Source of the DNA: Escherichia coli
Lineage (GTDB): Bacteria; Pseudomonadota; Gammaproteobacteria; Enterobacterales; Enterobacteriaceae
NCBI RefSeq assembly: GCF_003334385.1
Contig: NZ_QOWN01000067.1
Reading direction: 5' to 3' (one strand)
DNA: 10,916 nucleotides
The notes beneath the pieces are model-generated. The model saw only the letters and a program-made list of their open reading frames with translations. It did no database searches and was not told where the DNA came from. A program made the translations under genes and the position numbers. Positions 35-1,042 of the stretch are shown here, one piece after another. The number at the start of each line of letters is the position of its first letter. Positions within the stretch are counted from its first letter, which is position 1.

Positions 35-1042
35 TCATATCAGGCGTAATACCACAACCCTTAAGTTAGCGCTTATGAGGTGTTGCTCCGGGTGTTTCCC
101 CTGCCGGTTCGGCGAGTACGCGAACCAGACCGCTGGAGGAGATGACGAACCCACATTGCGATCATCCCGGACATACGTCCAGATACGCCCTGTTTTCGCC
201 TTTTTCTGACCCGGTGCCAGTACCTTTACCGGTGTGTCATCAGTGTGAACCTTGCGGGTGTTCATTACATAACGGTACAGGGCATCATTCACCGGTGTCA
301 TTAACTGGCAGCACGCGTCAACCCAGTTGGAGAGTAAGGCCCGGCTCAGTTCGACACCCTAGCGGGCAAAGATTTCACTCTGACGATACAGTGGCAGATG
401 TTCGCAGTATTTTCCCGTTAACACGCGGGCAAGTAATCCGGGGCCCGCGATACCACGCTCTATCGGGCGGGACGGCGCCGGTGCTTCAACAATACAGTCA
501 CATTTTGTACAGGCTTTTTTTACCCGTTCTGTGCGGATCACTTTCAGGGCACTGCTCACCAGTTCCAGCTGTTCAGCGCTGACTTCCCCCAGATAATCCA
601 GCTCACCGCCACACTCCGGGCAACAGCTTTCTTCTGGCTCCAGGCGGTGTATTTCACGGGGAAGGTGTGCCGGTAACGGACGACGATGGCGCGACTGTCG
701 CAACTGGCGGGGAACCTGAGGATCGTCTTCCCGCCCACTGTAACGATCGCTGTCCTGTTCACGTTGTTTCAGCAGAGCCTCAGCCAGTTCAACTTCACGA
801 CGCAGTTTTTCAGAACGGGTACCGAACAGCATCCGGCGCAGTTTTTCTATCTGAGCCCGCAGATGTTCTATTTCCCGTTCATCTTCTTCGATCTTTTCTT
901 CGGCACGTGTCAGTGCAGAGCGCAGGAAGGCTTCCGTCTCTTCAACCAGACTCAGTTGCTGGTCTTTCTGACGGAGGGCTTCAGCCTGCTCAGAGAGCAA
1001 CCTTTCCAGCTCTGCGATGCGAATGAGGTATTTCTGACTCAT
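35..1042 (-). pseudogene. tnpC: IS66-family transposase TnpC (orf3), disrupted by an in-frame amber stop at 359-361 and lacking the C-terminal part
   Basis: ORFs 359..1042 and 35..301 are in the same frame, separated by one TAG (plus-strand 'cta' at 359-361). The N-terminal part has a leucine-rich coiled region and a CxxC...CxxC zinc-finger-like motif (CPECGG...CTKCDC), then APAPSRPIERGIAGPGLLA...LPLYRQSEIFAR. The downstream part carries the HTDDTPVKVLAPG...GRIWTYVRDDR...AVWFAYSP motif typical of IS66 transposases. Read-through gives about 335 aa against the roughly 500+ aa expected; family resemblance ends after ...HPEQHL near position 79. Confidence 0.85.

Follow-up and report, generated by a model that had tools for sequence, protein, structure and literature searches.

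Members of the IS66 family are recognised by three consecutive genes on one strand, tnpA, tnpB and tnpC, by a complete TnpC transposase, and by terminal inverted repeats that begin GTAAGCG; on insertion, the family makes an 8-bp target-site duplication. The copy used here as the reference, the best match found, is that of strain GE3 (NZ_CP012376.1), which lies at the same chromosomal locus and encodes an intact TnpC of 537 amino acids (WP_000080195.1). Two other systems serve for comparison. On the plasmids pMTY14664_IncFII and pE100416_79, a copy of IS421 is inserted in the tnpC gene of a related IS66-family element. In lacI, the amber hotspots reportedly fall at CCAGG Dcm sites, as Coulondre, Miller and colleagues are said to have found in 1978.

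The stretch of Escherichia coli DNA analysed here, referred to as the window, has 10,916 nucleotides and carries part of an IS66-family element next to the fec operon. We consider it very probable that this copy of ISEc23 has been decaying stepwise, through an amber mutation at a Dcm site in codon Gln228 of tnpC and a later insertion of IS421 after codon 322.

The ISEc23 copy and its relatives

A megablast search of 5,426 complete E. coli genomes showed that positions 77–2200 of the window are essentially identical to copies named ISEc23 in RefSeq; the identity to copies annotated as 'IS66-like element ISEc23 family transposase' is 99.95% (2,123 of 2,124 bases). The full element, as delimited in the intact copy of the GE3 locus (L001 5323–7854), has 2,532 bp, and 1,853 of these are present in the window (Table 1). 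The genes tnpA, tnpB and tnpC follow one another on one strand, and the ATGA at 1420–1423 is the overlap of tnpA and tnpB. All three presented matches to NCBIfam models above the curated cutoffs: tnpA to IS66_ISRel24_TnpA (83 bits, cutoff 74), tnpB to IS66_TnpB (120.9 bits, cutoff 50), and the tnpC remnant to transpos_IS66 (221.7 bits, profile positions 4–200 of 387). The opposite end of the intact copy (from L001 5323) has GTAAGCGTCAACGGAGCACCGTAT, with which the left terminal repeat forms an imperfect pair. The assignment to the IS66 family made in the first-pass annotation is borne out by these three matches and by the name ISEc23 that RefSeq gives to identical copies. TnpC is incomplete, with a stop at codon 228 and the end of the gene at codon 322, which corresponds to about position 127 of the 284 of the DDE_Tnp_IS66 profile. 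The tnpC of the window is an IS66-family pseudogene rather than a functional member.

The GE3 locus shares with the window the three-gene layout, the left inverted repeat and the flank, in which a fragment of an IS3-family element is followed by fecE, fecD, fecC, fecB and fecA. The two loci differ in that codon 228 of GE3 is CAG and its tnpC is uninterrupted, whereas the window presents TAG at this codon and IS421 after codon 322. The IS3 fragment covers positions 317–368 of the 369 of the NCBIfam transpos_IS3 profile; it is noted in RefSeq as 'integrase core domain-containing protein, incomplete', and other matches to it are annotated as ISEc52. Between this fragment and fecE there is an ORF of 85 amino acids (2243–2500), a hypothetical protein in RefSeq (WP_000177057.1), which has 47 amino acids in some gene calls of related loci. 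The fecIRABCDE operon (3058–10603, minus strand) appears intact. The first 77 bases of the window are the end of IS421, and the last 77 (10840–10916) belong to IS1 and begin GGTAATGCTGCCAACTTACTG...; this suggests that the window is a complete short-read contig assembled with k=77 and bounded by repeats.

Table 1. Features of the window, with the domains of the intact TnpC (residue numbers) in the last rows
Feature	Position	Strand	Basis
IS421 (IS4 family), terminal 77 bases	1–77	-	bases 1–76 100% identical to annotated copies
Tail of the tnpC frame foreign to IS66 (ISANLRVVVLRLI and TGA 37–35)	35–76	-	translation; IS421 identity of the bases
tnpC remnant, codons 1–322 of 537	77–1042	-	translation; Pfam on the intact protein; NCBIfam
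ISEc23 part (left inverted repeat, tnpA, tnpB, tnpC codons 1–322)	78–1930	-	GE3 comparison
AGGTGTTGCT, predicted 10-bp duplication of the IS421 target, single copy within the window	78–87		plasmid insertion parallel
Amber TAG in place of CAG (Gln228)	359–361	-	single GE3 mismatch at 361
tnpB, intact, 116 aa	1073–1423	-	NCBIfam IS66_TnpB; identical to GE3 WP_000624722.1
tnpA, intact, 141 aa	1420–1845	-	NCBIfam IS66_ISRel24_TnpA; identical to GE3 WP_000422741.1
ISEc23 left terminal inverted repeat, from the outer end inward beginning GTAAGCGTAAACTGACCGCCGTATGTA	1904–1930	-	
IS3-family transposase C-terminal fragment, ISEc52-like, abutting ISEc23	1931–2160	+	NCBIfam transpos_IS3
fecE	3058–3825	-	
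fecD	3826–4782	-	
fecC	4779–5777	-	
fecB	5774–6676	-	
fecA	6721–9045	-	
fecR	9132–10085	-	
fecI	10082–10603	-	
Intact TnpC, leucine zipper	residues 60–130		Pfam
Intact TnpC, zinc finger	residues 138–182		Pfam
Intact TnpC, DDE_Tnp_IS66	residues 196–486		Pfam
Intact TnpC, IS66 C-terminal element	residues 494–530		Pfam

Of the 5,426 complete genomes, 82 have the fec-linked junction of ISEc23 with the IS3 fragment. The best 15 matches among those with this junction show a single base difference from the window, and in GE3 this base is the CAG/TAG site. At the intact copy there is no 8-bp duplication, its flanks being GGAGAAAT and GAAACTGC (L001 5315–5322 and 7855–7862, equivalent to window 1931–1938), and the transposase fragments that flank it are encoded on opposite strands. 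From these two features, the insertion site was probably rearranged after the insertion of ISEc23, at an early time.

The same chromosomal copy with the same amber allele was found in NCTC11121, NCTC9966 and GCA_037641505.1 (L004). Unlike the window, these three keep tnpC codons 323–537 and have no IS421 at this place; in L004, a tnpC ORF of 290 amino acids lies downstream where the window has IS421. NCTC11121 and NCTC9966 differ further in having lost fec, tnpA, tnpB and the 5' end of tnpC. In both, ISEc23 with the TAG allele breaks off at the equivalent of window position 828, where it meets a DUF5983/DUF957 region (L002 and L003, 6736–6765), and the fec operon is absent at this junction. 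In GCA_902841925.1 (L006), an IS110-family insertion occupies the C-terminal part of the TAG-bearing tnpC (11678–12811); it is a second, independent nested insertion sequence in the dead gene. The secondary lesions of the TAG allele differ by lineage, being the losses in the NCTC strains, the IS110-family insertion in L006 and IS421 in the window.

The junction with IS421

The similarity to ISEc23 ends at 77/78, after codon 322 (...HPEQHL/RPFRG...). Bases 1–76 match the end of annotated IS421 at 76 of 76 positions in 2,749 records at ≥99% identity, and the matching copies are annotated as 'IS4-like element IS421 family transposase'. Base 77 (G) fits both IS421 and ISEc23, and the junction is placed at 76/77 or 77/78. 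The terminal inverted repeat of IS421, CAACCCTTAAGTTAGCGCTTATG, is at 55–77, and the IS421 transposase has its start codon at 22–20, the position of this CDS being taken from L014 and L026. The 13-residue tail ISANLRVVVLRLI and the TGA that follows it are a read-through into this inverted repeat and are foreign to IS66.

The ends and the target pattern of IS421 were derived from eight full copies. These have 1,337–1,339 bp with ends CATAAGCG...CGCTTATG, and the repeat CATAAGCGCTAACTTAAGGGTTG matches both ends of all of them. All eight are simple insertions with duplications of 10–11 bp, such as GGATCATTCC or GGGTTTACCC, in targets formed by a G-run, N6 and a C-run, with extra G's on the left and extra C's on the right. 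The site in ISEc23, GGCGG-AGGTGTTGCT-CCGGG, loosely fits this pattern, one side of the insertion being within the window. It had been claimed that the family resemblance stops after ...HPEQHL and that the frame ends at 35–37, and the break at 77/78 agrees with this. The accompanying claim of an independent loss of the C-terminal part finds no support in that form: the visible break is the junction with an inserted IS421, and no deletion is seen.

The window stops 77 bases into IS421. It is more likely that codons 323–537 and the right end of the element were displaced and now lie about 1.34 kb away, beyond IS421 and outside the contig, because every one of the eight IS421 copies examined is a simple insertion. 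After such an insertion, the left end of IS421 would be followed by AGGTGTTGCT and then by CGCCCCTTCCGGGG.... A true disappearance of these 215 codons and of the right end, through an adjacent deletion mediated by IS421 or through recombination between IS421 copies, seems unlikely. In its favour, the window presents nothing beyond IS421, and the locus is prone to rearrangement, as seen in the losses of the NCTC strains, in the IS110-family insertion of L006 and in the missing 8-bp duplication of the intact copy. Against a deletion, duplications flank all eight full copies, and the only other IS421 known at the same nucleotide keeps the IS66 remainder on its far side.

The exact ISEc23/IS421 junction was absent from the 5,426 complete E. 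coli genomes, the PLSDB plasmids, the GTDB representative genomes and the JGI metagenomes. An exact-protein look-up gave no record of the chimeric 88-aa ORF, while the matches listed for the predicted C-terminal ORF of 198 amino acids, 10 blocks of 155, were all other interrupted or split ISEc23 tnpC genes, none of them beside IS421.

In the two plasmids, IS421 (L014 2738–4076 and L015 2738–4076) lies at the same nucleotide, in the same orientation and in the same kind of target as in the window; each side bears the 10-bp duplication AGGTGTTGCC, and the rest of the IS66 element continues past the insertion. The plasmid insertions differ from that of the window in that both junctions are visible and the host element, which is plasmid-borne, is about 93% identical to ISEc23 over the 318 adjoining bases. 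At the tenth position after IS421, the window has the base of ISEc23 (AGGTGTTGCT), where the plasmids differ (AGGTGTTGCC), and the sequence stays ISEc23-like from there on, which argues for independent insertions rather than import. The identical nucleotide and orientation in the window, pMTY14664_IncFII and pE100416_79 would also be expected if the junction had been imported by recombination from the plasmid element, with no new transposition. Such an import is very improbable, since the conversion tract would need to stop no more than 10 bases from the junction, before an ISEc23 base and sequence identical to ISEc23, and since the site itself fits the IS421 target pattern. The shared nucleotide and orientation in two tnpC genes, one plasmid-borne and one chromosomal, point to a preferred target of IS421 inside IS66-family transposase genes.

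The amber codon in tnpC

On the minus strand, positions 2–1042 form one frame, which reads MSQKYL...EIFAR, a stop, GVELSRALL...HPEQHL, the tail ISANLRVVVLRLI and a second stop. The first is an in-frame TAG (CTA on the plus strand) and the second is the TGA at 35–37. Over positions 77–8200, which are all of the window that the GE3 locus covers, only two bases differ from GE3, at 361 (A in the window, G in GE3) and at 6401, in fecB. Since base 361 is the sole difference within ISEc23, the stop is a single CAG-to-TAG substitution at Gln228. It is no chance effect, because the sequence is one base away from one that is present at ≥99% identity in thousands of E. coli records.

At least eight other assemblies (NCTC11121, NCTC9966, L004–L008 and L013) have TAG at this locus; they come from different projects and include two metagenome assemblies. 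NCTC11121 and NCTC9966 are, among the matches listed, the only complete genomes with 100% identity over 77–400, and their tnpC is noted by PGAP with an 'internal stop'. In the other six, the copy that has deoR, rbsK and fucP in its flanks reads GCCCGC TAG GGT, and the fec genes are also present in four of these six loci (L004–L007). L004 is 100% identical to the window over 77–10916, that is, 10,840 bases. In the assembly collection, 86 blocks contained a protein exactly identical to the 227-aa fragment.

The TAG allele is real and inherited. The first-pass annotation had read the two tnpC ORFs as parts of a single gene, broken by one CAG-to-TAG substitution in a Gln codon, and had asked for a check of sequencing error at 359–361; the GE3 comparison supports the former, and the recurrence of TAG in the two NCTC strains and six further assemblies answers the latter. 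It is scarcely credible that the true codon is CAG and that TAG is a sequencing or assembly error, for although one base is changed, in a repeat with several copies that short-read assemblies can confuse with one another, and some contigs end at this variable codon (L011 and L012 immediately before it, L009 two bases into it), the same TAG is found at the same locus in eight other assemblies from different projects, and one relative is identical throughout the 10,840 bases.

Four further candidates, L009–L012, do not count towards the TAG allele: L011 and L012 break off directly ahead of the codon, L009 ends within it, at CA-, and the sequenced copy checked for L010 reads CAG. L009, L011 and L012 are short-read contigs with unrelated upstream contexts, which break off at the CAG/TAG codon or no more than two bases from it, and the contig ends of L009–L012 lie near locus position 10681. 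Contig ends at this codon look like branching of the assembly graph at a variant between ISEc23 copies. Contigs that end in this way yield a partial product of 227 amino acids, which mimics the amber fragment.

The inner C of CCAGG is methylated by Dcm, and the deamination of 5-methylcytosine makes a classic amber hotspot at CAG codons. The ancestral context in tnpC, GCC CGC CAG GGT, includes a CCAGG site, whose inner, methylated cytosine is the base that mutated. The lacI hotspots and tnpC are alike in that a CAG codon for Gln, beginning with the inner cytosine of CCAGG, changes to TAG. Deamination at the Dcm site is the probable source of the amber codon; in contrast to lacI, the mechanism in tnpC is read from the sequence context alone. 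The TAG allele is older than the insertion of IS421, since the 100% identical relative has TAG and is free of IS421 at this place.

Transposase function and decay of the copy

The tnpC remnant keeps the leucine zipper, the zinc finger and the first 127 residues of DDE_Tnp_IS66. Residues D268, D332 and E463 and the motif CWxHxRR (355–361) are invariant among four IS66 transposases that share as little as 31% identity. The three acidic residues are the putative catalytic triad, an assignment that draws also on the motifs of the IS66 family. A sequence search returned no solved structure for an IS66 transposase, and nothing usable on the IS66 DDE residues was found in the literature.

The amber product would comprise residues 1–227, with the leucine zipper and the zinc finger. 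Because none of the three acidic residues is in this product, and read-through of TAG would gain only D268 ahead of IS421, the copy is non-autonomous, that is, unable to transpose by itself. The earlier view that the element is immobile and fixed next to fec stands in part: this copy cannot yield a functional transposase, but it might be mobilised in trans. E. coli genomes often have several places that match ISEc23 (median of five per genome), and these other copies could act on the present one if both of its ends survive, the left one being visible in the window.

The 227-residue product could still be made, since the tnpA-tnpB-tnpC operon is otherwise intact. By analogy with Tn5 and IS1, in which truncated proteins act as inhibitors, it might bind the ends of ISEc23 or full-length TnpC and so damp the transposition of other copies, which we regard as a long shot. 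Such a role, if true, could help to explain the persistence of the TAG allele in several lineages.

For the stepwise decay proposed here, the first event is the observed change of the inner C of CCAGG to T in tnpC, by which CAG became TAG and the product came to end after 227 residues. In the second event, IS421 would have inserted at the G-run/C-run target after codon 322, only in the lineage of the window, and the tnpC frame now runs for 13 codons into the inverted repeat of IS421 and stops. This is ordinary decay and nesting of insertion sequences in an accessory region of E. coli, which is already known biology, and the amber allele is already annotated as a pseudogene in RefSeq. A caution for annotation follows from the locus: what looked like a truncated C-terminus, next to the end of a contig from short reads, was here the junction with another insertion sequence, and loss is not to be concluded from such contigs. 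The TAG allele and the IS421 junction may serve as lineage markers for strains that carry this fec region.
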